Notes: generated from the letters alone by a model not told the origin. Positions 17,539-64,000 are shown, counted from the stretch's first letter. The stretch: 64,000 nucleotides of DNA from Candidatus Ozemobacteraceae bacterium (GCA_035388825.1 DAOOQQ010000016.1:12334-76333), one strand, 5' to 3'. Made by a program: numbers and translations.

Positions 17539-20235
<2,697 letters not shown>

Positions 20236-25253: not shown

Positions 25254-25291
25254 CTGAAGGGCAATCCACGATTGCCCACAATTATCCGAGA

Positions 25292-48955: not shown

Positions 48956-49459
48956 ATGGAATTCAAACATACGATCGATGCCATTGCGAAGAAGACACCG
49001 AGAGAAGAAGCCGATGCTCGTCGAGCAGGTCTTCTTCGACTGGATGAGCCTGCGAGAGGGGCGGAGGTCGGGCTCTGGTGGTTGATCGAAAACAACATCT
49101 TTCGTCTGGCCCAGCCATGGTCCCAAGCACCTGAGGAGGACGGCTGGCACATGATCGAGGACATCCATGACCATGCCTGGGCTGACATGAAAGCCGCTTT
49201 GGCGTCGAGGTTTCCTTCGATCATTCACCTCAGATACAACGACCCCGAACGAGGTCGGGTCTGGTATCGCCCTCGAGAGAATACTTTCTTCATTACCTGC
49301 TCCAAGCTCATCAAAGCTGAACAAGCCATCATTCGTACAATCATGGAGAAGTTCGGGATAACCGCAAAGGCCGTCCGTGTCGTGAATGACCCACAGTATG
49401 ACGTTCGTCCGTTGCCATTGCAGGACAGGAATACACCGAATGAAATTCCACGCATTTGA
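48956..49459 (+). CDS. Hypothetical protein
   Basis: ORF 18 nt after the phosphoesterase gene. No recognisable domain. Confidence 0.4.
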   Translation: MEFKHTIDAIAKKTPREEADARRAGLLRLDEPARGAEVGLWWLIENNIFRLAQPWSQAPEEDGWHMIEDIHDHAWADMKAALASRFPSIIHLRYNDPERGRVWYRPRENTFFITCSKLIKAEQAIIRTIMEKFGITAKAVRVVNDPQYDVRPLPLQDRNTPNEIPRI

Positions 49460-49743
49460 ATGGAGAAGTATATATGCCTGGGTTTATAGATGATCTCAGA
49501 ATTCTCGTCAGGCAATGCCTTGCCTGCGACGGCAGGGATCGGTTCGTTCGGTCTCTTGGATACAGAAACATTTCGAAGGGGCTTCGCCGGATCGATGCGT
49601 TTCTCTGCGGCGGAGAACCGGCGCAGGATCGTCTCGACCGGCTGGCGCATATTCTCGGCCTGGATCCGGCTGACGTCGTATGCAAAGCACCAACGCTATC
49701 ACTGGCCCACATGGGGTGCCTCAAACCCGGGGGAATATTATGA
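49456..49743 (+). CDS. Hypothetical protein; N-terminal module (RSLGYRNISKGLRRIDAFLCG…DRLAHILGLDP) paralogous to the N-terminus of ORF 63392-63985
   Basis: Shared R-x-LGYRN-x-x-KG-x-RRI-x-x-FL-x-G…L-x-L-x-P motif between the two ORFs. Confidence 0.4.
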   Translation: MNGEVYMPGFIDDLRILVRQCLACDGRDRFVRSLGYRNISKGLRRIDAFLCGGEPAQDRLDRLAHILGLDPADVVCKAPTLSLAHMGCLKPGGIL

Positions 49744-50372
49744 TGATTCCAATACAGTATTCAGATCCAAGCGATTCGAAGACGTCCTTTCATATTGTTA
49801 CTCATATTCAAGCCAGTGAAATCAAGTATTTCACCGATAAGCGTTTTGGAGAGTGCTTTTGGTCGAATGATGTAAAGGCACCGAAAGAAGAACAATGCCA
49901 GGAATATATGATGCGGTTGTTTTCTTTGGCAAGCCTTCCTCCAGAATCGAAATTCACTTCAGCTTTCATAAAATCACCATGCTTTTCTTGTGAGCATTGT
50001 TGGGAATATGGATCTATATCCTTATTTTTGGAATTAGAAAGGATAAGAGAATCAACAATCGTCTTCAATGGCGATGTGAAGAATTTGGCTTTCAAGATTT
50101 TCGGCCAGAATTGCTCACCGAAAAAGTATTTGAGATTTCATTCCCTTGACATCCCAGCATTTCACATGTTGGTCCATCTTCAAAGATACTATTGGAATTA
50201 CATGGCTCATGCGATGTTCAAAAAGCCGTTTTTCCCTCGAATGGTTGGAAGCTATTTCGAAGTAAGGATTTTGCGGCCGATTACCAGGAAGGACATAAGC
50301 ATGATTGTAATTCCGATGGATCTTGATAAAGCCTCGGTTAAAAGGGTCGAAGAATTGGCTAACTCAGATTGA
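49740..50372 (+). CDS. Hypothetical protein (AT-rich gene)
   Basis: ORF only. Low GC. Confidence 0.35.
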   Translation: MMIPIQYSDPSDSKTSFHIVTHIQASEIKYFTDKRFGECFWSNDVKAPKEEQCQEYMMRLFSLASLPPESKFTSAFIKSPCFSCEHCWEYGSISLFLELERIRESTIVFNGDVKNLAFKIFGQNCSPKKYLRFHSLDIPAFHMLVHLQRYYWNYMAHAMFKKPFFPRMVGSYFEVRILRPITRKDISMIVIPMDLDKASVKRVEELANSD

Positions 50373-50424
50373 AGAACGCCCTGACAAATGATTCGACAAG
50401 GTAATTATCAAAAGGAGGTCTCGA

Positions 50425-50838
50425 ATGAGTGTTCTTCTCCTCGAAGACAACGAGTCAAGAATCAGGCGCTTCGAGAAACTCGGGCTGAACGTGCTTGTCT
50501 GCCGTAATGCATTCGAGGCGATCGCCAGGTTGTATACGCATCGCGATACGATACGCCTCATCTCCCTCGATCATGATCTGACGCCGCGCGAGAACGCCTG
50601 TGGCTCGCTCGGAATCGCCTGCGCCTGTCATGTCGTCGACCTTCTTTGTGTCATGCCGACCTTCTGCCCGGTGATGATCCACACATCGAACGAACAGGCC
50701 GCGGCCTTGATGAAACACCGCCTCGTCAGTTGCGGCTGGCCCGTCATCTGGGTGAAAACGGATGCACCCTTTCCCGACGACTGGATCGAAACTCTCTGGA
50801 AGGAAGCCGTACGTTCCGCCGGGCTCATGCCTTCATGA
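50425..50838 (+). CDS. Small stand-alone CheY-like (receiver-fold) protein with conserved Cys cluster, paralog A
   Basis: LLLEDNESRI…LISLDHDL…CGSLGIACACHVVD…FCPVMIHTSNE…WPVIWVKTD…PDDWI. Acidic, Asp, Thr/Ser and Lys sit at the canonical receiver positions. GGAGG RBS. Confidence 0.55.
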   Translation: MSVLLLEDNESRIRRFEKLGLNVLVCRNAFEAIARLYTHRDTIRLISLDHDLTPRENACGSLGIACACHVVDLLCVMPTFCPVMIHTSNEQAAALMKHRLVSCGWPVIWVKTDAPFPDDWIETLWKEAVRSAGLMPS

Positions 50839-50868
50839 TCTCGAGATATCGACGATCGAGGTGAGCAG

Positions 50869-51342
50869 ATGATCGAACATCTGGATAGAGTGACAGCAGG
50901 CGAAGCCATTCTCCATTTGTGGATCACCTGTCTTCGAAGTCGTGTCGAGCCGAAGCTGGCGTTCATCGAGATCGATGAGGGTGTGATCCGGTGCCGCCCC
51001 AAAACGCTGGATAAATGCCGATTCTTCAAGGAGTATCTTCTTCCCTTCGAAGCCGGAAGCCCACCGGAAGCGGGATTGGATATCGTCACCACCTCGACGG
51101 CTCGGCTTCAACGCGGCGTTCTTTTCTATCATCTTCGACGGAAGGAACTTCTTCTCCTCCTCCCCTGCCGGGAGATGGCGAATCCGGTATTGATGTTCGC
51201 TGTTCTCCGAGAATTGGGCCTTGATTCGCTGCCGGTGGGATTCGCCAGGCGAAGAAAGGACGGCAGAATCCGACGCATTCCAAATCTGAGAGTTCTCTAC
51301 AGATTTCTCCGTCTTCACCCTGATATTCAGATATATGTCTGA
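50869..51342 (+). CDS. Hypothetical protein (partner gene downstream of REC-like paralog A)
   Basis: ORF only. Confidence 0.35.
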   Translation: MIEHLDRVTAGEAILHLWITCLRSRVEPKLAFIEIDEGVIRCRPKTLDKCRFFKEYLLPFEAGSPPEAGLDIVTTSTARLQRGVLFYHLRRKELLLLLPCREMANPVLMFAVLRELGLDSLPVGFARRRKDGRIRRIPNLRVLYRFLRLHPDIQIYV

Positions 51343-51443
51343 TCGCTCGTCATCTCCTGCGTTCGTATGAAATCGCCGACGGCACCCGGGGTGAAACATG
51401 TTTGTTTCTATTTATGTCGGTATAGATAAGAAAGAGGTCTCAC

Positions 51444-51878
51444 ATGAAAATTCTGGTTCTCGAAGACGACCCATTTCGGATTTCGATCATGAAAGCCCTT
51501 CTGAAGAAAGAGCGAATTCCATTCTCGATCTGTCCGGACCCCATCGATTTCCTCGTGGAACTGACCTTCAAATCTGCCGAAACGACGATCATCTCCCTGG
51601 ACCATGATCTGTCACGCATCGTACGACCGTGCGGCATCTACAGCTTCGATTGCGGCTGCGCCGTGGTCAGGTTCATGAGCCGGATGAAACCTGTTTGCCC
51701 CGTCCTGGTCCATTCCCGGAACGATCAAGAACGGCTGAGGATGATCGAAGATCTGACCGGCGCCGGATGGCTCGCTCAGCCCGTCATCGAAGACCCGACG
51801 AATGAAACCAACTGGGTCGAAAGCGCATGGATCGAGGCAATTCGTACAATGCACAAGAATGGGGAAAATAACCCCTAA
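51444..51878 (+). CDS. Small stand-alone CheY-like protein with Cys cluster, paralog B
   Basis: ILVLEDDPFRI…IISLDHDL…CGIYSFDCGCAVV…VCPVLVHSRND… Same motif positions as paralogs A and C. Confidence 0.55.
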   Translation: MKILVLEDDPFRISIMKALLKKERIPFSICPDPIDFLVELTFKSAETTIISLDHDLSRIVRPCGIYSFDCGCAVVRFMSRMKPVCPVLVHSRNDQERLRMIEDLTGAGWLAQPVIEDPTNETNWVESAWIEAIRTMHKNGENNP

Positions 51879-51896
51879 CCAACCGCGTGAGAATGC

Positions 51897-51925
51897 TTGA
51901 CATATAGAAACCATTTCTATATATT
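51897..51925 (+). promoter_or_regulatory. Sigma-70-like promoter TTGACA, 17-bp spacer, TATATT, with palindromic operator (TATAGAAA-cca-TTTCTATA) in the spacer; the ATG at 51932 suggests a leaderless transcript
   Basis: Hexamers, 17-bp spacer and 8-bp inverted-repeat arms seen directly. A second copy lies at about 54836-54864. Confidence 0.55.
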
Positions 51926-51931
51926 AGTTTT

Positions 51932-52156
51932 ATGACTACCAAGCAGCGCTTCCGGAACAAATACCGCCTCGAGATCCGCGAGCGGGACCACAATCCGGCG
52001 CATGCGCATCTTTTCGGCGGCGGTGTCGATGTGGTCATCGATCTGATCACTCTCGAGACGTCGGGCGACTGCCCCCGCGATCTCCTGGACGAGGTCGTCG
52101 GGTATGTGAGGGCGCACCGCGATGAACTGATGGAGGAGTGGAAAAAATGGCACTGA
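51932..52156 (+). CDS. DUF4160-family small protein
   Basis: …NPAHAHLF… matches the DUF4160 signature (HNPPHFH-like). Overlaps the downstream DUF2442 gene. Confidence 0.55.
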   Translation: MTTKQRFRNKYRLEIRERDHNPAHAHLFGGGVDVVIDLITLETSGDCPRDLLDEVVGYVRAHRDELMEEWKKWH

Positions 52157-52670
52157 TGAAACGGCCAAGACTGACGGCCATCAAGGCGATGCCGAATTTC
52201 AAAATGCGCCTGACTTTCCTGAACGGGGCAACCTACGTCGTCGACTTTCTTCCGCTTTTCGAGGAATCGAAAGGGCTTGCCCCTTTGCGCAATCAGAAGG
52301 CATTCGCCGACGCCATGATGGACGAATGGGGCTGGGAGATCGAATGGCCGGCGTTCGACATTCAGATCGGCGCCGACACCCTCTGGATGGACGCTCAGGC
52401 GCAGGCCGCGAAAGATCCCGCGACCCGCGACTTCATCATGTGGCGGGCGAGGAACGGCCTTTCCCTTGCCGACGCAGCCCGGGCCCTTGGCATCACGTCG
52501 CGAACCGTCTCGGCCTACGGCACGGGCGAAAGGCCGGTCCCGCTCTACATCACCCTTGCCTGCAAAGGCTGGGAGGCCGAACGCCAGCCCGGACACAAAA
52601 AAGCGGCCTGATTACAAATCAGGTCGGGTTGTCGTTCGCCGATATCGTATGCAATCCAGAGACATCAAGA
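52077..52670 (+). repeat. Direct repeat copy 1 (3' end of DUF4160 gene plus complete DUF2442-HTH gene), about 98% identical to 58008-58600 over the coding part
   Basis: Hand alignment: identical 157-aa ORFs. 3' flanks are homologous but diverged. Confidence 0.7.
52138..52611 (+). CDS. DUF2442 domain protein fused to XRE-like HTH (copy 1)
   Basis: …PRLTAIKAMPNFKMRLTFLNGATYVVDF… is the DUF2442 pattern. C-terminal LSLADAARALGITSRTVSAY is an HTH. The 157-aa protein is identical to copy 2 at 58068-58541. Confidence 0.55.
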   Translation: MEKMALMKRPRLTAIKAMPNFKMRLTFLNGATYVVDFLPLFEESKGLAPLRNQKAFADAMMDEWGWEIEWPAFDIQIGADTLWMDAQAQAAKDPATRDFIMWRARNGLSLADAARALGITSRTVSAYGTGERPVPLYITLACKGWEAERQPGHKKAA

Positions 52671-52921
52671 AAACTCTCTGTATGAACAGCCTGGCGACCA
52701 CTTGGTCCGACCGACCTCGTTTTAAAAACCTGAATTTGAAGTAATCCGTCCAATATGATACGGTTTCGAGGTCAACGTCTCTACGCGCCGTTGATGTTGA
52801 CGGATTCCTTCGGAACATATGGACGAATCAATGGAATACGCAGTTTACTAGATCAAGGCCCGTGCGCGGCCCCCAATTACTGCTGGAACGCCTTGTTGGG
52901 TATAATATATAGGAGTATATT

Positions 52922-54664
52922 ATGGCTTCACAGTTACTAAAAGAAGTTCTCATTTCCGCGAAAAAGTGTGATCTTTTGCTTCCTGATTTTCAGCGAGATT
53001 TTGTGTGGAAGCCACCCGCAGTGATCAAGCTCATTTGCTCAATATTAAACAAGTATCCAATCGGGGGACTGCTCTTCATGGAGACCGAAGGGGATTATCA
53101 GACAAGGCCCCTTGATGGTATCCCCCCAAGAGACGAAAATGAAAATCAGCCACCCATCAAGACACTAATCTTAGACGGTCAACAAAGATTAACTTCATGC
53201 TATAAAGCGTTCTTCGGAGAAATGAAGGATGCGCGCTACCCCGGCCGCTACTTCTTTGACTATAAAAAGTATGTTCTTTCTCCAAATGTGACAGGTAGCG
53301 AAATTGAAGATTATATTGTATTTCGAAAAAGGAACGAGGTTCAAGCACAACTTTCTCAGACAGCCGCAGAACAAACCGCGGGATTGTTTCCATTGGATAT
53401 CATTTTCGACAAACCTCGCGGAACGGACTACACCCAATGGCTCGCGGGTTTCAATTTTTCTGCGGCTGGTAACGACCCCGAAAAATATGCCCATTTAACA
53501 TCTATAACAGCATCCTTTCAAAGAATAATTGAGAATGTAACCTCCTATCAACTTCAGTTTGAAGCAATTCCTCGTGCGACCAGCCCAGAAGTAATATGCA
53601 CGGTATTCGAGACAATAAACACAACCGGTAAACGATTAACTGTTTTTGATCTACTTGTTGCACGATGTTTTCCAAAACAGATAAAGCTCAGAGAAATGCT
53701 CATCAAAGCCGTCGATGATCCCGTCATAAGAAGGTTTGACGATGACGAGGGAGAAGAACTTTGCACAATTGCTCTGCCAAGAATCATTTCATTAATGCAT
53801 AAGAATTCTGCAAAGCGGGGTGACTTGTTAACACTTGAACCTGAGGTAATTGGTCAAAGATGGGATGAGGCAGTGTCTGCTCTTAGGAAAAGCCTCGAGC
53901 TTGTATGGAAGGTTTTTGGTTCAATTGGCCTTCGATTTGTTCCGCTCCCAGACATGATTCCCCCGATAGCTGTTATTTTAAGCCATCCGAAGTTCGATCA
54001 ATCCAATCCAGAAAACCAGAACATGCTTAAGAAATGGTATTGGAGGTGTGTGTTTTCACAGTATTTTAGCAGTTCTTCGGATACAAAAGCGGCTCGAACC
54101 GTAAAAGAATGGACCGATTCAAATGAAGGCTGGCTCTTTGAAAGCAAGAATATTCCTGAGGTGGTCAAGAACTTTTCATTAAGCAAATATGTTTTATCAG
54201 ATGTTGCACGAAGTGATAATGCAATATACCGAGGAGTTATGAGTTTACTCATTGCAAATGGCGCAGAGGATTTTGGCCCTTCAAGGACAAAGATTGTCGA
54301 TTTACTACCTGGAGAGGTCGATGACCACCACATTTATCCGGTAAGGTTCCTCGAGCCTTCTGGTATTCGCGGAAACACAGTCAATTTTATCGCCAATAGA
54401 ACCCCATTATATAAACTAACAAATCAAAACATCGGAAACGACGCCCCGTGTGTGTATTTACAAGATGCTAACAGGGTATCTACTGAAGTAAGGAAAATGC
54501 TTCCTTCACATGGTATTCCTGAAATTATTTTCAAGGAATTTACGAAGGAGCAATATGAAAGATTTACACGAGATCGGGCATCGACGCTTCTTGAGATGAT
54601 AAAAAAGGCGGTTGAAGTGAACGAAATTGACGAGAGCCCAACAGGCGGTTCGAGCGGAAACTGA
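52922..54664 (+). CDS. GmrSD-family Type IV (modification-dependent) restriction endonuclease (DUF262/ParB-like plus DUF1524/His-Me finger)
   Basis: N-terminal LLPDFQRDFVW…LDGQQRLT DUF262 motifs. C-terminal …VDDHHIYPV… DUF1524 motif. Low-GC gene. Confidence 0.7.
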   Translation: MASQLLKEVLISAKKCDLLLPDFQRDFVWKPPAVIKLICSILNKYPIGGLLFMETEGDYQTRPLDGIPPRDENENQPPIKTLILDGQQRLTSCYKAFFGEMKDARYPGRYFFDYKKYVLSPNVTGSEIEDYIVFRKRNEVQAQLSQTAAEQTAGLFPLDIIFDKPRGTDYTQWLAGFNFSAAGNDPEKYAHLTSITASFQRIIENVTSYQLQFEAIPRATSPEVICTVFETINTTGKRLTVFDLLVARCFPKQIKLREMLIKAVDDPVIRRFDDDEGEELCTIALPRIISLMHKNSAKRGDLLTLEPEVIGQRWDEAVSALRKSLELVWKVFGSIGLRFVPLPDMIPPIAVILSHPKFDQSNPENQNMLKKWYWRCVFSQYFSSSSDTKAARTVKEWTDSNEGWLFESKNIPEVVKNFSLSKYVLSDVARSDNAIYRGVMSLLIANGAEDFGPSRTKIVDLLPGEVDDHHIYPVRFLEPSGIRGNTVNFIANRTPLYKLTNQNIGNDAPCVYLQDANRVSTEVRKMLPSHGIPEIIFKEFTKEQYERFTRDRASTLLEMIKKAVEVNEIDESPTGGSSGN

Positions 54665-54866
54665 ACGCCGGCCAGCGGTCTTGCATACGCCAGGCATGGG
54701 CTAATCCTTCAATTCAGCTCAACCGTGTTGCTCGAAGTCGAATGGAGGTTTGAATGCGTGGGCGTCCATATTTTTCCAGCCTCCTTCAAAGCCGCGCAGG
54801 AGCATCTCGCAAGTATGGGTTTCGAGAATGTTTGACATATAGAAACTATTTCTATATATTCGTTTT

Positions 54867-54968
54867 ATGACCACCAAGCACCGCTTCCGGAACAAATACC
54901 GCCTCGAGATCCGCGAGCGGGACCACAATCCGGCGCATGCGCATCTTTTCCGCGCAGGAAATCCATGA
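54867..54968 (+). pseudogene. Truncated DUF4160 gene (first about 28 codons conserved, then diverges to a stop at codon 34) with its own promoter/operator copy upstream (about 54836-54864)
   Basis: About 117 bp (54829-54945) is about 93% identical to 51890-52005. Confidence 0.6.
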
Positions 54969-57421: not shown

Positions 57422-57985
57422 ATGAAATTCTATTACTTACACATCCCTAAGTATCGTTATGGTTCATACTTGCAATTGTTCTCCAATGAGAAGGAGTGCT
57501 TCTCTTTCGATCTTTCCAATGAGGCTTCCGGAAAGATAAATTTCAAAGTTGATAGGCAAAAGTTTACCATTGAAAAATTAGGATATGGTGATTTTGAAAT
57601 TTCTAAGGATGAAGTCGATGATGTCGAGCATGAGCTTAAACTCGACAATTGTTTTAAGAACATTTCGAAAGACATTTCAAAATATTTTGTAAAAGAGAAG
57701 AGAAGCAGTAATCAAGAAATAATTAACTATATTATGATTTCTGGCAGGTTGCGATGCAAAAAGATGCCTTCCATTGGGTTTTCAGAAATCACTTTGGTTG
57801 ATTTCAACGGATTTTCCGTAAATGGACGTATTGTTGCCTATTTTAAAACAGATTCCTTGGACGAGCTTGGGATTACAATTGCAATCGACAGCGACATACA
57901 TCCTTGGATTTGTTTCTGCTCCGAAAATGTTAAAATTTCGAGGAACAAGATTTGTCGAACAAAGCGTTCCAGCGGACAGCAGTGA
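57422..57985 (+). CDS. Hypothetical protein (AT-rich)
   Basis: ORF only. Very low GC. Confidence 0.35.
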   Translation: MKFYYLHIPKYRYGSYLQLFSNEKECFSFDLSNEASGKINFKVDRQKFTIEKLGYGDFEISKDEVDDVEHELKLDNCFKNISKDISKYFVKEKRSSNQEIINYIMISGRLRCKKMPSIGFSEITLVDFNGFSVNGRIVAYFKTDSLDELGITIAIDSDIHPWICFCSENVKISRNKICRTKRSSGQQ

Positions 57986-58007
57986 AAAATTAATATGTAG
58001 AACAGTG

Positions 58008-58600
58008 CGATCTTCTGGACGAGGTTGTCGGGTATGTGAGGGCGCACCGCGATGAACTGCTGGAGGTGTGGAAAAAATGGCACTGATGAAACGGCCAAGA
58101 CTGACGGCCATCAAGGCGATGCCGAATTTCAAAATGCGCCTGACTTTCCTGAACGGGGCAACCTACGTCGTCGACTTTCTTCCGCTTTTCGAGGAATCGA
58201 AAGGGCTTGCCCCTTTGCGCAATCAGAAGGCATTCGCCGACGCCATGATGGACGAATGGGGCTGGGAGATCGAATGGCCGGCGTTCGACATTCAGATCGG
58301 CGCCGACACCCTCTGGATGGACGCTCAGGCGCAGGCCGCGAAAGATCCCGCGACCCGCGACTTCATCATGTGGCGGGCGAGGAACGGCCTTTCCCTTGCC
58401 GACGCAGCCCGGGCCCTTGGCATCACGTCGCGAACCGTCTCGGCCTACGGCACGGGCGAAAGGCCGGTCCCGCTCTACATCACCCTTGCCTGCAAAGGCT
58501 GGGAGGCCGAACGCCAGCCAGGACACAAAAAAGCGGCCTGATTACATATCAGCCTGGGCCGTCGTTTACCGGCATCGTATGCAAAGCCGTGTCAGAGGCG
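58008..58600 (+). repeat. Direct repeat copy 2 (3' fragment of DUF4160 gene plus complete DUF2442-HTH gene)
   Basis: Aligned by hand to 52077-52670. Confidence 0.7.
58068..58541 (+). CDS. DUF2442 domain protein fused to XRE-like HTH (copy 2, identical protein to 52138-52611)
   Basis: Identical 157-aa translation in the ORF track. Confidence 0.55.
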   Translation: MEKMALMKRPRLTAIKAMPNFKMRLTFLNGATYVVDFLPLFEESKGLAPLRNQKAFADAMMDEWGWEIEWPAFDIQIGADTLWMDAQAQAAKDPATRDFIMWRARNGLSLADAARALGITSRTVSAYGTGERPVPLYITLACKGWEAERQPGHKKAA

Positions 58601-58721
58601 AAAATCTCTGCATCAACAGCTTGATGACCACTCATGCCATCCAAACCTCATCGAACGCCGCAGACAAGCGGAACTTTGGGCCGTGCGCCGGCCTTGATTC
58701 AACAAGGCCCCTGAACGGCTT

Positions 58722-59969
58722 TCAATTTCCGCTCGAATCGCTGGTTAGCTGTTTCTTTTTCGAGTTTACCCTTGTAATTACCTGGATGACACCCTGGGTA
58801 GTTTGCTTTTCTCCAGATATTGCATCAGCAGACTGTTTCTCGAATTCGGCAGAATTAAAGTCCCCGCCGATCTGGTCAATAATCTCTGCATAAATTGCCT
58901 GACACAAGTGAGGGAAGAATGACTCCTCATTTTTCTTTTCCACAAAATTCTCCAGATCGTTATCTTCGCCAAATTGTCGTTGCTCGCCGAGATTCTTCTT
59001 TGCATTGTTTACGAGGTTGATTACCTGGCAATATGGATTCTTCTCATCCTGGAAGAACTTCTTCTCGAAACCATTCAGGACGGAAACGATCTTTTCATTC
59101 AAAAAAGTATCCCGATACCCAGCCTGAACACGAAGATGGTTCCTGGGCCGGGCTACAATGCTGATTGATGAATCAAAAGCGAATGTATCGTCTTCTTCGC
59201 GAAACAATCGGACTTTCAAGACGCCAATTCCATTGTCATTGGCAAAGTCAATTGCGTCCTCATCAAGTTCGGTTTCTCGCTCCTCAAATACATCAAAAAC
59301 AACCAGCCATTTTTCATTTGCCCAGCTTCCATTGATTGCAGTTTCCGCCAGCGCAGAGAGTAGTTCTCCGCGAATCAACGGGCCGCACTTCAATTCAATT
59401 GATGACAGAACCCAGTTGGGGAGGTTGTCAACCGACTGAATTAATCTGCCTATTTCTGGATTCGCAAAAGCTTTTTTAAATTCATTCTCGCGAACCATTA
59501 TCATATCAGGATTTGCCCACTTTTGATTCGATTGCTTGGGCGGAAGCGACAGAACTTTAGCCTCAAATTTCCTTTCCAATACTATTGAAGCTGGCAGATG
59601 CAAGAACGCTTCCCAGTTTTCCCGTTCTTCTTGATTCGTTTGTTCAGAAGGTTTCTTTCCTCTTTTCAGTTTTCCATCCTTGCCTTCCCCCTCAGTTATG
59701 GAAACTCTGCTTTCGGCAATCTCGGAAAGTAACTGGTATCCCTTTTTTGGCCCAGGGTGGTGGAGTGTTCTACCTACGGCCCTTTTTAAATAGTTAATGA
59801 GATTTGTTTCAACTTGTAAATCCGACAATTCATCGGTGGTAATGCTGACTTCATTGAAAGACCTTGTGACAAGGTCAGCGATTTGGCCCGCTGAAAGATT
59901 TGAGGTCATTTTCAAAGCGAGAAGCTTCTCCAACTTTTCTTGAAGTCCCGGAAATTTCGCTTTGCTCAT
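58722..59969 (-). CDS. Hypothetical protein (415 aa, AT-rich)
   Basis: ORF only. No confident domain. Confidence 0.4.
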   Translation of the reverse strand: MSKAKFPGLQEKLEKLLALKMTSNLSAGQIADLVTRSFNEVSITTDELSDLQVETNLINYLKRAVGRTLHHPGPKKGYQLLSEIAESRVSITEGEGKDGKLKRGKKPSEQTNQEERENWEAFLHLPASIVLERKFEAKVLSLPPKQSNQKWANPDMIMVRENEFKKAFANPEIGRLIQSVDNLPNWVLSSIELKCGPLIRGELLSALAETAINGSWANEKWLVVFDVFEERETELDEDAIDFANDNGIGVLKVRLFREEDDTFAFDSSISIVARPRNHLRVQAGYRDTFLNEKIVSVLNGFEKKFFQDEKNPYCQVINLVNNAKKNLGEQRQFGEDNDLENFVEKKNEESFFPHLCQAIYAEIIDQIGGDFNSAEFEKQSADAISGEKQTTQGVIQVITRVNSKKKQLTSDSSGN

Positions 59970-60085
59970 AAAAACTCCTTAACTGTTTTTGACAGCTATG
60001 TGCGCATTCCTATAAATCCGCCCATCTGCTCCGAATGAATTCGTCCGACCTTTCGGAGCAAAGCCGCACGCCTCACGACACGAAA

Positions 60086-62251
60086 TTATTTTCTGATCCC
60101 TGGAGAGCTTAAGAACGCGATCATGCTCATATTGATGATGTCGGATCGAATATTCGGCTCGATGATTTCGCTCACATCGATTTTCGCATCGGGTCTTGGA
60201 AAGAGCTCTACAGCGGCCGCGGCAATCTCGAAAAGGTCGTCGCTCATGCCGGGTTGTGGGCAGGTGAACCAGATGATGGCGTATGCGGCTTCGGAGAGGA
60301 TTGGTTCACTGCGAATCTTTTCGAGAAGAAGGTTGCGGGTTCCAGACCATCGGAAAATGCGGAATGATGGATAGTTTCGCAATGCCGCGAACAGCTTTCC
60401 CGGATCGAGCGTCGAAACGATTTCCTCCCCCCAGCCACCTGGGAGAAGGCCATCGGCGCCCGGCAGGCGACCTCCGGCCGGTTCAGGCATCATGCAGAGA
60501 TGTGTCTCACACCCGGTTTTAGAAATCGTTTTGAATCGGGGTGGCCCTTCGAGTATGCGCATGATGACGAACGACGCAGATGGAATTCCGAACGCCTTCT
60601 TAATCTCGGCGGCCATCTTCCAGTTCCAGGTGATGTCTTCCGAGATGTCCACCGTGAAACAGGCTTTTTCGAGATCGTATCGAACGACACCGCGCGGAAT
60701 ATCCAGGGCCGTGTTCGTTTCGAGCTCGGGGAACCGGGAGATCATCGCCGGCCAGAAATCAGAGAACACGAGTTTCGATGTGAGATACTTCCCGATCGTT
60801 TTCCCGCGTCGCAGACTCGAGGAAAAGGGAATGACCTTGTTTTCGTGAATCCAGAACAGCCCCAGGCGAGGCGACCGCTTCCGTCGGGAAAGGCGGTTCA
60901 GGCGACGCTCGATTCGCGCCCATGCGCAATCGTCGAACGGCCATTTCTCGATCTTCGGCTGATACCGTTTCAACGCTTCTTCTCGCAGAACACCAGGTGT
61001 TTCGGATTCCCAGAGTTCATCGAGAAAGCCGGGAAATCGTTCATTGAACTCGGCAATGGACCTCTCAACATTCAGCAAGCCTTCCGGCAGTCTTTCGGTT
61101 TCGGGTCGATCTATCGATCGGATGGCATCGTCAAGAATCACGGCGCAGTCATCATCAAAGGCGTGGCGCATGATCGCCTCGATATATGCGGGGCCCCCGG
61201 CTTCCTTCAGCCGCCCGGTTTGGCGCAGGCGGTCGATGACCTTGTCATACAGGAGCCACTCCTTTCGGGCGTGCATTTCCACCATCTGCCCGAACAGCGT
61301 CTTGTGCTCGGGAATCATGAATCGTTCCGGCGTGAGTTTCGAAAACACCTTCTCCTTCAGCTCCGACAGATGCCCGCCGTCGGAGAGCAGCACTCCGAGC
61401 AGGAGAGCCTCCTCCTCCCGTGGCGGAGTCCGAATCTCCTCCGGGCAAGCGGTATCGAAGAAAAAGATCCCGTCACATTCGATAACATCTGCAGCATCAC
61501 CGGCATAGACGCCCATGCCGACGTCAAGCTCGACAGAGTCATCATCTAAATACCTTACGATATCTTTGCAGAACTCATCGGCGCGAGGTTGCAATTCCCG
61601 TTCCGAAAAGTGCAGGAATACGGATCCGGAAGAAGCCTTTCTATAGTTACAATGACACTTCATCGAATGAAGATCGGCGTATCGCCCCGTCCAGGTGATG
61701 ACCTTATACGCAGGATATGATTCAAGTTTCTTCAGCAGACGTTCATGGGAGAATCTGAAGATTTCCTCAGACGCGCGTCGCATGGTGAAACCGTTGTTTC
61801 TCCCCTTTTTCACGGTGAGCCTCGGCGTTTCGATGGTTCGCAGCCGGGGAATGACGACAGATCGTGCCGGGATATGGAATCGCCGCCTGATCACAGCGAT
61901 CAGCGCCCTGTTCGAAAGAATTTCGGCCGGTGCGACGATCTCGAATGCCCCGTTCACCAGCTCAAAGGTGACGTAGCCGTCGCACATCCCCTGCCCCTCT
62001 TGCCGGCGAAGCTCCGGGAAACGCTGAATCACCCTTCTCTGGTGCTCCGCGAGAGAGTTCATGGCGAGCAGCCAGATGTGATCCTGCTCCGTTTTGTCGA
62101 GGCTGACGGTCTGGATGAAGATGTTCCCCCGATACACGACGAAATGCCCGAGCCGGGGCATCGGCGTCAGGGAGAGCAGGAACTTCAGCCGCTTTTCGAT
62201 ACGGTCCCATTGTTTCTCGTCGTGGAGCCAATCATGCCGGTAGAGTTTCAT
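60086..62251 (-). CDS. Large hypothetical protein with an internally duplicated about 130-aa module flanking a DnaB-helicase-N-terminal-like domain
   Basis: Residues about 1-130 and about 440-570 align (KLYRHDWLHDEKQWDRIEKRLKFL…PRLGHFVVY vs KRYQPKIEKWPFDDCAWARIERRLNRL…PRLGLFWIH). The central EALLLGVLLSDGGHLSELKEKVFSKLTPERFMIPEHKTLFGQMVEMHARKEWLLYDKVIDRLRQTGRLKEAGGPAYIEAI resembles DnaB_N. Confidence 0.45.
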   Translation of the reverse strand: MKLYRHDWLHDEKQWDRIEKRLKFLLSLTPMPRLGHFVVYRGNIFIQTVSLDKTEQDHIWLLAMNSLAEHQRRVIQRFPELRRQEGQGMCDGYVTFELVNGAFEIVAPAEILSNRALIAVIRRRFHIPARSVVIPRLRTIETPRLTVKKGRNNGFTMRRASEEIFRFSHERLLKKLESYPAYKVITWTGRYADLHSMKCHCNYRKASSGSVFLHFSERELQPRADEFCKDIVRYLDDDSVELDVGMGVYAGDAADVIECDGIFFFDTACPEEIRTPPREEEALLLGVLLSDGGHLSELKEKVFSKLTPERFMIPEHKTLFGQMVEMHARKEWLLYDKVIDRLRQTGRLKEAGGPAYIEAIMRHAFDDDCAVILDDAIRSIDRPETERLPEGLLNVERSIAEFNERFPGFLDELWESETPGVLREEALKRYQPKIEKWPFDDCAWARIERRLNRLSRRKRSPRLGLFWIHENKVIPFSSSLRRGKTIGKYLTSKLVFSDFWPAMISRFPELETNTALDIPRGVVRYDLEKACFTVDISEDITWNWKMAAEIKKAFGIPSASFVIMRILEGPPRFKTISKTGCETHLCMMPEPAGGRLPGADGLLPGGWGEEIVSTLDPGKLFAALRNYPSFRIFRWSGTRNLLLEKIRSEPILSEAAYAIIWFTCPQPGMSDDLFEIAAAAVELFPRPDAKIDVSEIIEPNIRSDIINMSMIAFLSSPGIRK

Positions 62252-62322
62252 TCAGGCACCCTCCTTTCCATTATCTGCCGTGCGAGGAACTGGCGCGTCG
62301 ATACGGGCAGATGTGCGAATCA

Positions 62323-62832
62323 TCATGGTTGCCCCCTCTCGGCAGGCGGTTCGTTCCGGGGGTCTGCAACCATAAGCCGTGCAGAAAACTCTTCCTTCCT
62401 GAAATGTTTTACAAAACGGCCGCAGCAAAAATCAGACAGGATGATCTTCCGTTTCGCAAAGAAGAATTCCCAGGCTTCATCGGCTATCGCGTCATCGGAT
62501 TGCGGGTCGCGAAGGTCGTATATATCGCGGCTCTCAAAGTGGACCCAGAGCCCGCTGCCGGCTTTCCAGAAAAGCGCACACCAGTCCTTCCCATAATATG
62601 TATCGTTCAATATGTATGTCCAGTGAAAATGTCGGCAATAGCCATGCGTTTCGAGAAGTCGCGTGATTCTGCACGGGTGATCGATATGGCGGAGATGCTC
62701 GAGCGGATCAGTTCCGATCATCGTGTTGGAAAAGCGCTCGGGTTCGGATTTCCGAATTGCCAGTTCGAGACTTTCGGGAAAGGGGAAATGCTTCCTGATA
62801 AACGCCTCGCGCCTGCGTTTGTATTCGTTCAT
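62323..62832 (-). CDS. Hypothetical protein (partner gene downstream of REC-like paralog C)
   Basis: ORF with GGAAGGGAAG RBS. Cys/His/Trp-rich. No domain recognised. Confidence 0.35.
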   Translation of the reverse strand: MNEYKRRREAFIRKHFPFPESLELAIRKSEPERFSNTMIGTDPLEHLRHIDHPCRITRLLETHGYCRHFHWTYILNDTYYGKDWCALFWKAGSGLWVHFESRDIYDLRDPQSDDAIADEAWEFFFAKRKIILSDFCCGRFVKHFRKEEFSARLMVADPRNEPPAERGQP

Positions 62833-62849
62833 TCCGCTTCCCTTCCTTC

Positions 62850-63260
62850 TCATTTTATGCCCAGGGCTTCGAGAGCACGGTCTTTCCAGATGGTCTGGAT
62901 CCAGTCGTCGGGGTAAAGAAGTTCGGATTTCACCCAGATGACGTTCCACCCGTGCCGGGCAAGACGTTGCTTCATGACAAGCGCGCCCACCTCGTTCGAC
63001 GTGTGAATCATCACCGGGCAGAAGGGCGCCAGAAGATTCAGGAAGTCGACGACGAAACAGCCGCAGGCGATTCCGAGGTTGCCGCAGGGGGTCTCGTGGG
63101 GTTGCAGGTCGTGGTCCAACGAGAGAAGCTGAATCATCGTGCGATGGGAATGAAGGTATGCGACAGCCTCGAACGCGTCATTTCTAACGGCAATATCCAG
63201 ACCCAGGTCTGCAAACTGGCGAATCCGGGTTTCACTGTCTTCAAGAAGAAAGATGCCCAT
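62850..63260 (-). CDS. Small stand-alone CheY-like protein with Cys cluster, paralog C
   Basis: IFLLEDSETRI…LLSLDHDL…CGNLGIACGCFVVD…FCPVMIHTSNE…WNVIWVKSE…PDDWI. About 60% identical to paralog A. Confidence 0.55.
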   Translation of the reverse strand: MGIFLLEDSETRIRQFADLGLDIAVRNDAFEAVAYLHSHRTMIQLLSLDHDLQPHETPCGNLGIACGCFVVDFLNLLAPFCPVMIHTSNEVGALVMKQRLARHGWNVIWVKSELLYPDDWIQTIWKDRALEALGIK

Positions 63261-63391
63261 GTGGTTGCTACCTGCCTTTCTTCGATATTTCAAGCCGACA
63301 TTTTCCCGCCCCGATGCCGAATGTTCTACAATCAACACCGCTTTTCTGACGTATATGTCGAACGAAATGCTCGCCAGTCAGGCCGGTCTGG

Positions 63392-63985
63392 TCACGTCGT
63401 GCAGTTTCTGAATACCCCCGGGGGAATTTCACGGCCTTTATAGGAAAGCATCATGGGGGGAATCGATTTGGCGGCGGCTTCGAAGGGCCCGATGAAACGT
63501 CCATCGGTGTCGAATTTCATGCCGTTGTCGTATGTCTGCTGGTATCGATAGCCGGTGATCTTCCCGAAGGTGATGATCACGCCCTTGCTCGATTCATAGT
63601 GGCGGCGGATGATTTCGCCGATTTCTTCATGGCTCATGTTCTCCGACCTGACGGGGACGAAGCGCATAGAGGGAGCACCAGAGACGATAGCGGCAAAAAT
63701 CGGGGAAGGAATCGTACGTTCGGTCTCGACAAACAGGTGGGGCTGAAACTCAGCTCGTGCTTTCGCGATCCGTGCGGCGATCTCCTGTTTACAATCGCGT
63801 TCGAGCTCCTCGACCACCTTTCGGATCATTATATTCGGCTCGAGATGCAACGCCACGGCGATACGACACAGCAGGTCTTCTCCTTTATCGACACCGGCGA
63901 GAAACTTTTCGATGCGGCGGATCCCTTTCGCCGAATTCCTGTATCCGAGGGCGCGTGAAAAGGGTCCGCGTCCGTCTCGTTTCAC
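63392..63985 (-). CDS. Hypothetical protein; N-terminal RALGYRNSAKGIRRIEKFLAG module paralogous to ORF 49456-49743
   Basis: Shared N-terminal motif. Rest unknown. Confidence 0.4.
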   Translation of the reverse strand: MKRDGRGPFSRALGYRNSAKGIRRIEKFLAGVDKGEDLLCRIAVALHLEPNIMIRKVVEELERDCKQEIAARIAKARAEFQPHLFVETERTIPSPIFAAIVSGAPSMRFVPVRSENMSHEEIGEIIRRHYESSKGVIITFGKITGYRYQQTYDNGMKFDTDGRFIGPFEAAAKSIPPMMLSYKGREIPPGVFRNCTT

Positions 63986-64000
63986 GGCTTGCCCGACCAG

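Follow-up and report, generated by a model that had tools for sequence, protein, structure and literature searches.

Cysteine-Triplet cREC Paralogs in a Tandem-AAA ATPase Gene Cluster of a Candidatus Ozemobacteraceae Conflict Island

Introduction

The cREC (cyclic-phosphate processing Receiver; Pfam PF20274) family comprises receiver-like proteins for which nucleotide processing has been predicted (Iyer et al. 2021 PMC7824862; 2022 PMC9503650), and no experimental demonstration of cREC activity has been reported to date (PMC9503650). Most cRECs are described as borne by phages or prophages and are predicted to be counter-nucleotide enzymes (PMC7824862, PMC9503650), and the family is reported to lack any linkage to histidine kinases (PMC7824862).

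Here we analyze a 64,000-nucleotide stretch of DNA (GCA_035388825.1 DAOOQQ010000016.1:12334-76333), referred to below as the window, from a Candidatus Ozemobacteraceae MAG; it contains a defense/conflict island that has integrated at tRNA-Ala. The island includes the tRNA-Ala, a P4-type integrase, an MmeI-type IIG enzyme, a DpdF/GajB-like helicase and a GmrSD-like gene, and GC content falls across it. Three cREC genes lie here in two arms on opposite strands, an arrangement and a conflict setting that had already been recognized in a sequence-only reading of the window. The Cys-triplet cRECs, along with their AAA+ ATPase gene cluster, represent a rare variant within a family already described; all of the evidence is drawn from a small number of related lineages, represented by MAGs and metagenome contigs.

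Results and Discussion

The three cREC genes are as follows.

50425-50838, plus strand: cREC A, a type-1 Cys-cluster cREC
51444-51878, plus strand: cREC B, a type-2 Cys-cluster cREC (PF20274 at 27.3 bits, cut-off 27)
62850-63260, minus strand: cREC C, a type-1 Cys-cluster cREC (PF20274 at 31.4 bits)

All three score above the PF20274 gathering score in Pfam profile searches, none matches Pfam Response_reg at E≤0.1, and their fold is of the response-regulator receiver type, (beta-alpha)5. The open reading frames are present and related as the sequence-only reading had proposed, with BLASTP identities of 57% for A/C (E 7e-58), 31% for A/B (E 6e-21) and 30% for B/C (E 6e-19). Judged by these sequence comparisons, they are diverged paralogs of the cREC family that fall outside the CheY-type two-component receivers and His-Asp phosphorelays. 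The CheY-like label given to them earlier is thus replaced by PF20274: Response_reg is not matched, the cluster holds no histidine kinase and the Lys after beta5 is not a family feature. cREC C is the ortholog of cREC136 of the sister MAGs (82-84% identity to the L001 and L056 cREC), and a fourth member of 177 aa (cREC177) is located just past the window end, upstream of the gene that we call YRN.

Common to A, B and C are LLED, SLDHDL, H[TS]xN and the cluster C-x6-C-x-C ... CPV, so that the receiver motifs and conserved Cys residues noted earlier stand, with the exception of WVK, which occurs in A and C only and whose Lys faces a gap in 125 of the 153 family representatives. The family signature ED / SxDHD / CP / H[ST][ST]N / W..W is present in all three and near-invariant over the 153 representatives. 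The C-x6-C-x-C triplet is found in only 7 of the 153 and stands where a Gly-rich DPGxG beta3-alpha3 loop is usual in cRECs. Orthologs of cREC B (P0009, P0010) retain the Cys pattern, and L054 carries a cREC B-type protein in tandem with another cREC.

The receiver-type fold leaves room for a reading in which the cRECs would be phospho-accepting or ligand-binding switches, allosteric on the AAA2 ATPases or YRN described below and without substrate turnover, either as orphan receivers whose D49 takes its phosphate from an unlinked kinase or a small-molecule donor, or by simply binding a nucleotide. These are stand-alone proteins of ~137 aa, as is CheY, and several paralogs per locus would suit partner-specific switches. 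cREC A and C place E7/D8, D49, T87 and K111 at the five canonical receiver positions; because they hold all of the phospho-acceptor residues, including the Lys after beta5, a phospho-switch is possible. We nevertheless consider this reading rather unlikely, given the lack of any Response_reg match, the absence of the Lys from cREC B as well as from 125 of 153 relatives, and the near-invariance among the 153 representatives of H50, D51, H86 and N89, all foreign to receivers. In addition, no histidine kinase or Hpt protein is found within the island, the nearest hybrid kinase (17.5-20.2 kb) lying outside it, and the family is reported never to occur in linkage with such kinases (PMC7824862).

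The plus arm begins well upstream of cREC A and contains the following features.

43186-43218, plus strand: upstream element GTTAARTT-N-TTCGAATATAY, ~32 nt, a putative shared promoter/operator ahead of the plus-arm operon
43349-43642, plus strand: p97, a small winged-HTH protein with no WYL domain, resembling the HTH part of WYL-type regulators
43823-46066, plus strand: AAA2a, two tandem classical AAA domains and an N-terminal helical domain (Pfam AAA twice, E 1.4e-35)
46063-48375, plus strand: AAA2b, a second tandem-AAA ATPase (Pfam AAA twice, E 3e-42), overlapping the AAA2a stop
48372-48938, plus strand: calcineurin-like metallophosphoesterase (Pfam Metallophos_2 and Metallophos), its start overlapping the AAA2b stop
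48956-49459, plus strand: p167, an 'X' domain protein matching both ends of p721 (below)
49474-49743, plus strand: YRNs, an internally deleted YRN paralog (89 aa gene call)
49740-50372, plus strand: p210, between YRNs and cREC A, 48% identical to p209 of L001

Stops and starts overlap or abut from AAA2a to p210, with short gaps onward to cREC A, giving the order winged HTH, two tandem-AAA ATPases, metallophosphoesterase, p167, YRNs, p210, cREC A, cREC B. The ~32-nt element recurs 5' of cREC177 and of YRN (L010-L013) as well as 5' of cREC173, the first gene of the sister cluster in L001; it is thus ahead of three operon starts and of the L001 cluster, and may serve as a promoter/operator. The match of p97 to the PADLOC WYL model covers positions 16-62 of 229 (E 2e-5); p97 also has a weak ArgR wHTH match and is 64-67% identical to 97-aa genes of L001 and L056. 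AAA2a and AAA2b share 39% identity over 706 aa, and AAA2b is 54-61% identical to AAA2 genes of L001, L002 and L056. The metallophosphoesterase matches the PADLOC candidate PDC-S10 (E 4e-14) and, under the cut-off, the NCBIfam YfcE subfamily. p167 has zero matches in Pfam, PHROG, NCBIfam and PADLOC and aligns with residues 451-570 (E 4e-5) and 56-148 (E 0.013) of p721. No significant database-family match was obtained for p210, and a relationship to p169 of the minus arm was ruled out (hhalign probability 0.2%).

The minus arm reads YRN, cREC C, p169, p721 (X-DnaB_N-X), p415.

63392-64000, minus strand: YRN, a putative XRE-like HTH N-domain and a C-terminal domain, its 5' end ~30 nt past the window
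62323-62832, minus strand: p169, a conserved gene 3' of type-1 cREC, 63-65% identical to p155 of L001 and L056
60086-62251, minus strand: p721, an X domain, a DnaB_N-like domain (Pfam DnaB N-terminal domain, E 1.3e-10, residues 279-364) and a second X domain
58722-59969, minus strand: p415, the last minus-arm gene, 3' of p721 in four independent assemblies

In the AF2 model of YRN the N-domain has pLDDT values of 74-88 and the C-terminal domain values below 50; Foldseek matches are weak and consistently to Cro/C1/HigA-type HTH proteins, so that YRN, going by the model, is probably an XRE-like HTH followed by a C-terminal domain. Two members of this family had been placed upstream of cREC genes (49456-49743 and 63392-63985), and their relationship holds (49% over 53 aa, E 1e-13); however, the short copy is internally deleted and p210 intervenes before cREC A. 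YRNs retains 72 aa at the N-terminus (the HTH-like N-domain) together with the C-terminal tail, and is 54% identical to the L001 YRN over 74 aa. A 388-aa X-DnaB_N protein of L056 matches p721 twice, p169 has zero database or PDB matches, and p415, missing from L001 and L056, has zero matches in any library searched. Six cluster proteins lack either annotation or any relative detectable beyond this lineage, and no gene of the cluster was recognized as an effector, be it nuclease, protease or pore.

In sister Ozemobacteraceae MAGs the families that occupy two arms in the window are joined in one co-directional cluster. Such a cluster is found in L001/L015, L056-L058/L061 and L074, and a minimal set, AAA2 - 87 aa - YRN - cREC, is seen in L014. 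In L001 and L056 the gene 3' of cREC is p155, and L074 carries the p155/p169 family too; a type-1 cREC followed by this family occurs in 4/5 lineages. The position of the p210 family differs between loci, its L074 homolog being placed after p155. The conserved partners of cREC are tandem-AAA ATPases, YRN and the X-DnaB_N protein.

Between the arms lie a single GmrSD-like gene, an IS of ~0.9 kb, three small ORFs and two DUF4160/DUF2442-HTH copies, and two regions adjoin the plus-arm cREC genes.

50839-51443, no strand assigned: spacer of ~600 nt, with overlapping candidate ORFs at 50869-51342 (plus) and 50833-51399 (minus)
51889-52702, plus strand: repeat copy 1, DUF4160 (51932-52156) and DUF2442-HTH (52138-52611), by Pfam

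The two spacer ORFs have low and similar coding scores (0.079 and 0.048), no homolog in the sister loci and no Pfam match. Copy 1 is preceded by an 11/12 sigma-70-like site at 51897-51925 and matches 54824-54954 and 58007-58632 as a direct repeat; the module lies outside the cREC system. The link between the arms passes through this 626-bp repeat (95% identity), where most assemblies break.

These data bear on the proposal of the sequence-only reading that the locus consists of toxin-immunity-like modules, each with a conserved core and a variable partner, whose inverted pair could flip the bracketed segment. The arms are indeed inverted and carry paralogous genes, the neighbors of the three cRECs differ within the window and the p210 family changes position between loci. 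However, the claim of a different gene 3' of each cREC is weak. Behind cREC C lies p169, whose counterparts come after the orthologous cREC in three other lineages as well, and with this family 3' of type-1 cREC in 4/5 lineages the idea of a variable partner has little support; the 'partner' of cREC A is unverifiable as a gene, falling in a 600-nt stretch with two competing low-scoring ORFs; and that of cREC B is a duplicated DUF4160/DUF2442-HTH pair, independently promoted from its own strong promoter-like site. The 11-kb bracketed segment also takes in p415 and the 721-aa DnaB_N protein, both members of the minus-arm operon. Inversion by recombination of the cassettes is unsupported because their DNA similarity amounts to 249 bp at 73%, with a further 51 bp at 72.5% and a longest exact match of 19 nt; no inverted repeat of at least 30 nt was found, and no invertase domain among the ORFs scanned. 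Across 58379-64000 the window is matched at 100% identity by contigs from three further samples, the plus-arm side has the support of L004, and the same local junctions appear in independent assemblies. Homologous inversion is therefore largely refuted: the cassettes are alike as proteins only and form no recombination switch. We regard the proposal as a whole as very improbable.

It might also be argued that the adjacency and relative orientation of the arms are an assembly artifact of the DUF4160/DUF2442 repeat, at which L005, L006, L010, L011 and L013 break. Among the contigs fetched, NODE_281 alone spans IS-p102-p145-p241-copy 2, a count that left out a 79.2-kb NCBI contig also carrying cREC A sequence. 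Yet the copies are ~5% different over 626 nt and therefore distinguishable; p415 adjoins sequence specific to copy 2 in three independent samples, and the junction of cREC B is with copy 1. As the repeat is direct, the arms would be inverted at either junction. An artifact appears improbable.

More distant relatives offer an indication of function. In at least 20 Verrucomicrobiota/Planctomycetota loci a cREC is fused to an ADP-ribosylglycohydrolase (ARH), beside Nudix/NrtR, nicotinamidase and NadR-like genes, and L067/L068 hold a distant AAA2 and YRN pair with a PTP-SAK-ARH fusion and an NrtR-like Nudix. AAA2b can be aligned collinearly through both of its AAA domains, at 28-33%, with the AAA2 proteins of L068 and of proteobacterial plasmids; AAA2 relatives occur on seven such plasmids, where WYL genes adjoin in five, PD-(D/E)XK, RecB-like or DUF2779 genes are found in all seven and ARH or Macro in three. 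Genes for ARH, Macro, Nudix, WYL and nuclease proteins thus adjoin distant ATPase/YRN relatives. The window cluster itself shows no detectable NAD+/ADP-ribose enzyme, RNA ligase or full WYL domain, and its link to ADP-ribose would be one of analogy with these relatives at 28-33% identity.

The explanation that we prefer, with about even confidence, is that the cRECs would be processing or regulatory subunits, acting on nucleotide or ADP-ribose derivatives, of one multi-operon conflict system centered on AAA+ ATPases, defensive or counter-defensive in nature. Its parts would be the two tandem-AAA ATPases, the WYL-type wHTH, YRN, the calcineurin-like phosphoesterase, the X-DnaB_N protein and the orphan proteins, with the inverted cassettes as remnants, left by duplication and rearrangement, of a cluster whose genes run in one direction in sister genomes. 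The invariant Asp/His pocket (D8, D49-H50-D51, H86-[ST]-[ST]-N89) would bind or hydrolyze a phosphoester of a nucleotide-derived molecule, candidate substrates being a 2',3'- or 1'',2''-cyclic phosphate or an ADP-ribose derivative. The cRECs could in this way take the 'eraser/reset' role that ARH or Macro proteins hold beside related ATPases, and so gate the ATPase/effector part of the system. Since the Cys triplet replaces a Gly-rich loop, substrate binding or regulation may differ, an effect that could involve metal or redox state.

The same predicted chemistry could serve counter-defense, with the cREC and phosphoesterase genes, if not the whole cluster, as cargo of the mobile island that degrades host cADPR isomers, cyclic oligonucleotides or 2',3'-cyclic ends, as proposed for phage cRECs. 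Such a role fits a mostly phage- and prophage-borne family of predicted counter-nucleotide enzymes (PMC7824862, PMC9503650), the matches of cREC A to phage family phrog_1479 and to phage cREC structures, the integrase-bearing island and the several paralogs, which could address several signals. We regard it as a live alternative, though a rather unlikely one: tblastn of 50,697 phage records gave zero matches and no close relative is seen on viral contigs, the neighborhood consists of restriction and defense genes, not of genes for phage structure or replication, a close operonic tie to two large ATPases and regulators would be odd for simple signal sponges or degraders, and in L001 the cluster sits amid chromosomal sugar-metabolism genes.

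Comparison with Known Systems

With described cRECs the window proteins share the PF20274 gathering score, the (beta-alpha)5 fold, the signature and the lack of a histidine kinase link; a calcineurin-like phosphoesterase, which occasionally co-occurs in reported phage cREC neighborhoods, is present here as well. They differ in being stand-alone, with 3-4 paralogs per locus, in the C-x6-C-x-C (7/153) replacing the DPGxG loop, in having tandem-AAA ATPases, YRN and X-DnaB_N as neighbors rather than sirtuin, KptA, Nudix, ARH or RNA-ligase genes, and in that the phage collections searched contain no close relative of them. The Verrucomicrobiota/Planctomycetota cREC-ARH loci (L016-L050) belong to the same family (29-40% identity, with a CPV[ML][IV]H[TS]xN block), likewise carry several members per locus and fit the conflict and NAD-ADPr theme predicted for it. 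There, however, cREC forms the N-terminal part of an ARH fusion, next to which lie NrtR-like Nudix, nicotinamidase, NadR-like and NAD-kinase-like genes (the last two labels being read off sequence), none of which occurs in the window, and the Cys triplet, AAA2 and YRN are absent.

Common to CheY receivers (PF00072) and the window cRECs are the acidic pocket after beta1 and beta3 and the Thr/Ser after beta4, with the Lys after beta5 in cREC A and C, though not conserved in the cREC family; a Response_reg match and cognate kinase are lacking, and His50, Asp51, His86 and Asn89 are foreign to CheY. The D2 AAA of AAA2a and AAA2b matches the IetA/IteA models of the anti-phage system IetAS (the AAA ATPase IetA/IteA with the protease IetS) with E values of 1e-35 to 1e-37, over the AAA core only (~130-180 of 367-374 profile positions) and with an NCBIfam score of 121.6 bits against a cut-off of 510; the window has no subtilase partner, and its ATPases differ in their N-domain and in carrying two AAA domains.

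The tandem-AAA plasmid modules (for example NZ_CP109792.1, NZ_CP020471.1 and NZ_CP117420.1), whose combination of tandem-AAA, WYL, PD-(D/E)XK and ARH/Macro genes we did not find under a published name, and L068 have ATPases that align collinearly with that of the window, at 28-33%, through both AAA domains and some of the N-domain, a likeness for which orthology is not rigorously established. An adjoining WYL-type HTH regulator is shared, as is, in L067/L068, an adjoining YRN homolog. Whereas the plasmids carry WYL and PD-(D/E)XK genes, the window has just the HTH part of a WYL-type regulator and no detectable PD-(D/E)XK nuclease. Both place a phosphoester- or ADPr-processing enzyme, known or predicted, in the neighboring slot, the cRECs and metallophosphoesterase of the window standing where ARH or Macro is found there.

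The small Cys-rich proteins and their family

The locus carries three small Cys-rich proteins, found where the sequence-only reading had placed them and paralogous by BLASTP:
50425-50838, plus strand, cREC A
51444-51878, plus strand, cREC B
62850-63260, minus strand, cREC C

cREC A and cREC C are 57% identical (E 7e-58), and cREC B is ∼31% identical to each of them (E 6e-21 to A, 6e-19 to C). LLED, SLDHDL, H[TS]xN and a Cys cluster, C59-x6-C66-x-C68 ... C81-P-V, occur in all three, while a WVK motif also ascribed to the whole set is present in cREC A and cREC C and absent from cREC B. The proteins had been described as CheY-like receivers. They match instead PF20274 (cREC_REC), the 'cyclic-phosphate processing Receiver domain', with 35.8 bits for A, 31.4 for C and a marginal 27.3 for B relative to the Pfam gathering score of 27 bits, and none of A, B or C matches Response_reg (PF00072) at E≤0.1. 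Proteins of sister loci carry a precomputed PF20274 assignment. AlphaFold2 confidently predicts for cREC A (pLDDT 88.2, pTM 0.84) five β-α units arranged in the receiver-like Rossmannoid (βα)5 fold. When this fold was searched against viral models the top match was a phage protein annotated as cREC, with further phage cRECs next; the PDB sequence and profile search gave no significant solved structure. The three proteins are almost certainly paralogous members of the cREC family.

A profile search returned 1,921 cREC relatives at E≤1e-3 among 1.84 billion cluster representatives. The best 153 of these, on which signature columns were counted, share E7-D8, S47-x-D49-H50-D51, C81-P82, H86-[ST]87-[ST]88-N89, W105, W120 and W125. 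All of cREC A, B and C have E7, D8, D49, H50, D51, C81, P82, H86, N89, W105, W120 and W125, columns that are kept in from 131 (C81) to all 153 representatives (H86 in 153/153); A and C have T at position 87 and S at position 88, where B has S and R, respectively. The Cys triplet is another matter, occurring complete in just 7 of the 153, with the corresponding loop reading DPGxG in other representatives. These seven fall into two subfamilies with ∼31% identity between them, type 1 (A, C and their orthologs) and type 2 (B and its orthologs P0009 and P0010). A word-indexed search of 5.8 billion proteins gave five clusters of Cys-type cRECs, which are thus rare.

That the cRECs are true switches, responding to phosphorylation or to a ligand, is a less probable competing explanation, in line with the retention of all five receiver positions in cREC A and cREC C. 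The receiver Lys that follows β5, K111, is found in A, C and the type-1 orthologs, is missing from B and is a gap in 125 of the 153 relatives. No cognate histidine kinase or phosphotransfer partner occurs in the cluster of the window or in three of the sister loci (L001, L014, L056), and the ORFs scanned over 25-64 kb showed no HisKA or HATPase domain; cRECs are described as never associated with histidine kinases, and the present ones conform. The sole two-component gene among the scanned ORFs lies 30 kb from the cRECs and outside the genomic island described below: 17539-20235, plus strand, a self-contained hybrid histidine kinase with four PAS domains, HisKA, HATPase_c and its own receiver.

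The cREC family has been defined by comparative genomics alone, with a predicted metal-independent resolution of 2',3'- or 1'',2''-cyclic phosphates (PMC7824862, PMC9503650), and its members 'remain experimentally uncharacterized' (PMC9503650); our literature search found no experimental work on cREC or PF20274. In the literature cRECs are found in up to 18% of jumbo phages. Neither a scan of viral contigs nor tblastn against phage records found a counterpart of the present proteins. A role of the cREC cluster as counter-defence cargo is likewise a less probable competing explanation.

Organization of the two arms

The cRECs are distributed over two oppositely oriented groups of genes, a plus arm and a minus arm, in which orphan proteins are named by their length in residues (p97 and so on):
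Plus arm, in order: p97, AAA2a, AAA2b, metallophosphoesterase, p167, short YRN, p210, cREC A; then a 600-nt spacer and cREC B
p97: winged HTH matching the HTH part of the WYL model alone
AAA2a and AAA2b: each with two classical AAA domains
48372-48938, calcineurin-like metallophosphoesterase matching the PADLOC candidate PDC-S10
49474-49743, short YRN (89 aa)
Minus arm, in order: YRN, cREC C, p169, p721, p415
p721: X - DnaB_N-like - X, where X is an unannotated domain also present in p167

Genes of the plus arm are tightly packed over 43.8-50.4 kb, with stops and starts that overlap or nearly abut. The cRECs are thus no isolated cassettes. The 600-nt spacer has no verifiable gene: of two candidate ORFs neither is favored by coding score, and tblastn found no remnant of p155/p169 at 50.84-51.44 kb.

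A second paralog family with the motif RxLGYRNxxKGxRRIxxFLxG, referred to here as YRN, had been recognized correctly (49% identity over 53 aa, E 1e-13). On the plus side the short YRN is separated from cREC A by p210. With its middle missing and only the first 72 residues and the C-terminal tail kept, the short YRN is an internally deleted copy of the full-length protein, whose gene starts ∼30 nt past the window end. YRN is rare as well (four clusters in the word-indexed search of 5.8 billion proteins), and none was found in a plasmid collection. Only the N-terminal helical domain of its AlphaFold2 model is confident, and since pLDDT is below 50 for the C-terminal domain the fold search informs on the N-domain only, which it weakly suggests to be HTH-like. 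YRN, p169, p210 and the X domain had no significant match in PDB profile searches. Subsets of YRN, p169, p210, p167 and p415 were also compared with Pfam, PHROGs, NCBIfam and PADLOC, to no informative result, the best orphan matches being weak and at chance level (UbiD_N, E 0.065; phrog_1825, E 0.008). The notion that p169 and p210 are distant homologs, and so a third family common to both arms, was rejected on an hhalign probability of 0.2%.

Four assemblies of the same strain (L010-L013) extend beyond the window and place a fourth cREC upstream of YRN, just past the window end at the equivalent of ∼64.2-64.8 kb. It has 177 aa, reads SLDYDL and carries neither the Cys triplet nor CPV. Beyond it these assemblies hold a HepT/MNT toxin-antitoxin pair, a PDDEXK_1 protein and an IstB-like ATPase.

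A probable single system in sister genomes

The families of the two arms recur in sister MAGs and contigs, gathered there into one co-directional cluster:
L001 and L015: cREC173 - AAA2 - p97 - p209 - p59 - p130 - YRN - X.DnaB_N - cREC136 - p155 - AAA2
L056-L058 and L061: the order of L001 without cREC173 and p209; ∼9 kb in L056
L074: this core again, with p155 followed by p210
L014: a minimal AAA2 - 87 aa - YRN - cREC, adjoining an integrase

Set against these co-directional clusters, the arms of the window represent one system that has been rearranged and in part duplicated. The ortholog of the sister cREC is cREC C, at 82-84% identity, and cREC A, at 59-64%, is a more diverged duplicate. The sequence-only reading had paired each cREC with a different partner gene; in four of the five lineages the gene after the type-1 cREC is p155/p169, evidence against a variable partner. 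It is very probable that the cRECs belong to one conserved system.

Small proteins encoded between AAA2 and YRN (59 aa, L056 7146-7325; 87 aa, L014 2448-2711) share the motif W..PD[LM]R..Q, which we take to resemble YihD/DUF1040; the 87-aa protein has no match in Pfam.

A conserved ∼32-nt element, GTTAARTT..TTCGAATATA, also written GTTAARTT..(G)GAA..TTCGAATATAY and containing the palindrome TTCGAA, was found in two divergent genomes ahead of four genes, namely p97, the 177-aa cREC, YRN and the first gene of a sister cluster:
Window, 43186-43218 (before p97)
L010, 2951-2981 and 3715-3744
L001, 3371-3401

Within the window the strict pattern gave no further copy, and its 11-mer core occurs just once, at 43208. 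Its position ahead of four operon starts suggests that this candidate promoter/operator may confer common regulation on the operons.

The path between the arms and the question of inversion

It had been suggested that the arms, as inverted repeats, could mediate inversion of the segment between them, and also that they might be toxin-immunity, anti-defence or diversified signalling modules. No inverted repeat of ≥30 nt was found within 44-64 kb. Comparison of arm with arm by blastn gave two segments, one of 249 bp (73%) within the cREC genes and one of 51 bp (72.5%) within YRN, cREC A and cREC C share 64% identity as DNA, and the longest exact match between arms in a k-mer scan is 19 nt. On these results inversion by homologous recombination was rejected. 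No invertase was found among scanned ORFs of 49-64 kb, in which an IS5-family transposase is the lone recombination enzyme, and no alternative orientation was seen, all contigs examined from other samples agreeing with the junctions of the window. The toxin-immunity and inversion model is now very unlikely, and the invertible segment, the more eye-catching part of the original idea, does not hold.

What links the arms is a set of direct repeats of a DUF4160/DUF2442-HTH unit:
51889-52019 and 54824-54954, direct repeat, 95.4%
52077-52702 and 58007-58632, direct repeat, 94.9%
52922-54664, GmrSD-like gene
55321-56231, ∼0.9-kb IS whose 23-nt terminal inverted repeats are 91% complementary

The DUF4160 and DUF2442-HTH pair occurs twice at ∼95% identity (99% over 300 nt), flanking the GmrSD-like gene, and the second DUF4160 copy is interrupted by ∼3 kb that include the 0.9-kb IS. 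Over 58379-64000 three other samples gave contigs that match the window at 100% identity and end within the repeat, and other contigs support the order cREC B, first repeat copy, GmrSD, IS. The concordance of these contigs establishes that the local junctions are reproducible; the full path between the arms is spanned by one assembly alone among those examined. Most metagenome assemblies break at the DUF4160/DUF2442-HTH repeat. The IS5-family transposase (DUF4096 and DDE_Tnp_1) apparently lies in two pieces in different frames, at 55125-55346 and 55343-56092. Between the IS and the second repeat copy, 56433-57985 holds three orphan ORFs of low GC (102, 145 and 241 aa); the first two, 56433-56741 and 56738-57175, overlap by 4 nt in different frames, and the gene models of the public assemblies differ here (97 and 187 aa).

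The surrounding island

From ∼25.2 kb to the window end the GC content drops from ∼65% to 43-57%, and the genes encountered from this point include the following:
25181-26643, tRNA-Ala(CGC) and, directly after it, a P4-type integrase (Arm-DNA-bind_3, Phage_int_M, Phage_integrase)
31067-36163, minus strand, 1,698-aa double helicase, DEAD/Helicase_C (PADLOC DpdF, E 2e-109) plus UvrD-type (GajB-like)
36961-39786, plus strand, complete MmeI-type IIG restriction-methyltransferase (992 bits, PADLOC REase_MTase_IIG)
40212-41324, plus strand, 370-aa protein with a weak M78/IrrE peptidase domain
After the 370-aa protein, minus strand, 226-aa orphan
42161-43042, LysR regulator
Elsewhere on the island, a Mutator transposase

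The tRNA and integrase at 25181-26643 likely mark the left boundary of a genomic island, at least 39 kb long, which encloses the whole cREC locus. The fusion of DEAD and UvrD helicases is, by its domain matches, an unusual gene of apparent defence type. Just ahead of the tRNA, 24001-25000 has a GC spike of 74.6% and positive GC skew and overlaps a 386-aa ORF, 23868-25028, on the minus strand.

Proposed function

We propose a conflict system centred on AAA+ ATPases, in which the cRECs would be subunits that process nucleotides or phosphoesters, or at least bind nucleotides. The cRECs would act through the Asp/His pocket that defines the family and reset or erase, like ARH (ADP-ribosylglycohydrolase) or Macro proteins in related modules. 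The HTH proteins p97 and YRN would regulate the operons, and the tandem-AAA ATPases with their partners X-DnaB_N, p169, p210 and p415 would supply sensing and effector functions. A role of the cluster in conflict is moderately favored; an enzymatic eraser role of the cRECs, put forward by analogy, is more tentative and falls somewhat short of an even chance. More speculative still, and on balance unlikely, is an undescribed immune or counter-immune system of modular design in which an HTH regulator and a tandem-AAA ATPase would be joined by an 'eraser' slot filled with a new class of Cys-triplet cRECs, which would be metal- or redox-dependent enzymes or sensors for signals derived from nucleotides, with separate paralogs per signal, in which X-DnaB_N would sense invading replication machinery, and of which plasmid modules of WYL, AAA2, nuclease and ARH or Macro would be the commoner form.

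cRECs are widespread and their activity is only predicted, and the stand-alone Cys-triplet versions of 136-144 aa, encoded in a compact conserved operon, are easy biochemical targets; those studied here are tractable proteins for a first biochemical test of the family.

Relation to known systems

Forty genome loci with a cREC relative were compared, those from outside the Ozemobacteraceae being mostly from Verrucomicrobiota and Planctomycetota. In many of the latter cREC is fused to ARH, and in these large, conserved loci (L016-L050) the neighbors of cREC-ARH include extra ARH paralogs, NrtR-like Nudix, nicotinamidase, PP2C-like, SPFH, NAD-kinase-like and NadR-like proteins, a classical NAD+/ADP-ribose context. 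Unlike these loci, the cluster of the window is without ARH, NrtR-like Nudix, nicotinamidase, NadR-like or NAD-kinase-like genes; a search of the window for ARH, Macro, Nudix, sirtuin and RNA ligase found none, and its neighbors of NAD+/ADP-ribose, RNA-repair or WYL type are the calcineurin-like phosphoesterase and p97 (HTH part of the WYL model) alone. A link of this cluster to NAD+/ADP-ribose is therefore indirect, since it runs through relatives of AAA2 and YRN only.

One such relative came from a metagenome scan that gave YRN homologs at 26-39% identity, where in two loci (L067, L068) the homolog lies beside an AAA2-type ATPase, a PTP-SAK-ADP-ribosylglycohydrolase fusion and an NrtR-like Nudix protein (module at 70-5128 in L068). 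Others are tandem-AAA ATPases of proteobacterial plasmids, with the same architecture as the AAA2 of the window and collinear with it over both AAA domains (458-634 residues, 28-33% identity, E 1e-33 to 1e-57), scores to which generic AAA similarity adds, so that AAA2 orthology is provisional. A plasmid search with the AAA2 N-domain of the window found none, and its alignment returned one fragment in a word-indexed protein search. Annotated neighbors at the seven plasmid loci (L076-L082) include WYL proteins in five, PD-(D/E)XK, RecB-like or DUF2779 proteins in all seven, ARH or Macro in three and a WGR protein in one. HEPN proteins and PTP-SAK-ARH fusions were also seen across L068 and L076-L082. 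These neighbors indicate that the ATPase family is repeatedly accompanied by an HTH/WYL regulator, a nuclease and an enzyme in an ADP-ribose 'eraser' position, one that, by analogy, the cRECs and the metallophosphoesterase may fill in the Ozemobacteraceae version. The plasmid modules have a WYL regulator and a PD-(D/E)XK nuclease, whereas the window has p97, the HTH part alone, and no nuclease was found in it; phmmer queries with the plasmid nucleases gave no relative in the window at E≤1. The literature search gave no published name for the WYL-AAA-nuclease-ARH module.

IetAS was also considered for the window ATPase, whose match to IteA_antiphage reaches 121.6 bits relative to a cut-off of 510 and covers the AAA core alone. 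The match falls short of a full-length IetA/IteA-type ATPase and no IetS subtilase/protease gene was found among the scanned ORFs of the window, results that speak against IetAS.

Distant relatives tie the ATPase family to ADP-ribose erasers, WYL regulators and nucleases, and it may represent an unrecognised family of conflict systems, a result that a specialist in conflict-system genomics would find plausible rather than startling and that overturns no current view. The cREC family itself is already known, from prediction alone. What is new is the Cys-triplet subfamily, the presence of several stand-alone paralogs per locus and a neighborhood dominated by tandem-AAA ATPases, YRN and X-DnaB_N, giving cREC a new context of AAA+ ATPases rather than NAD+ enzymes.
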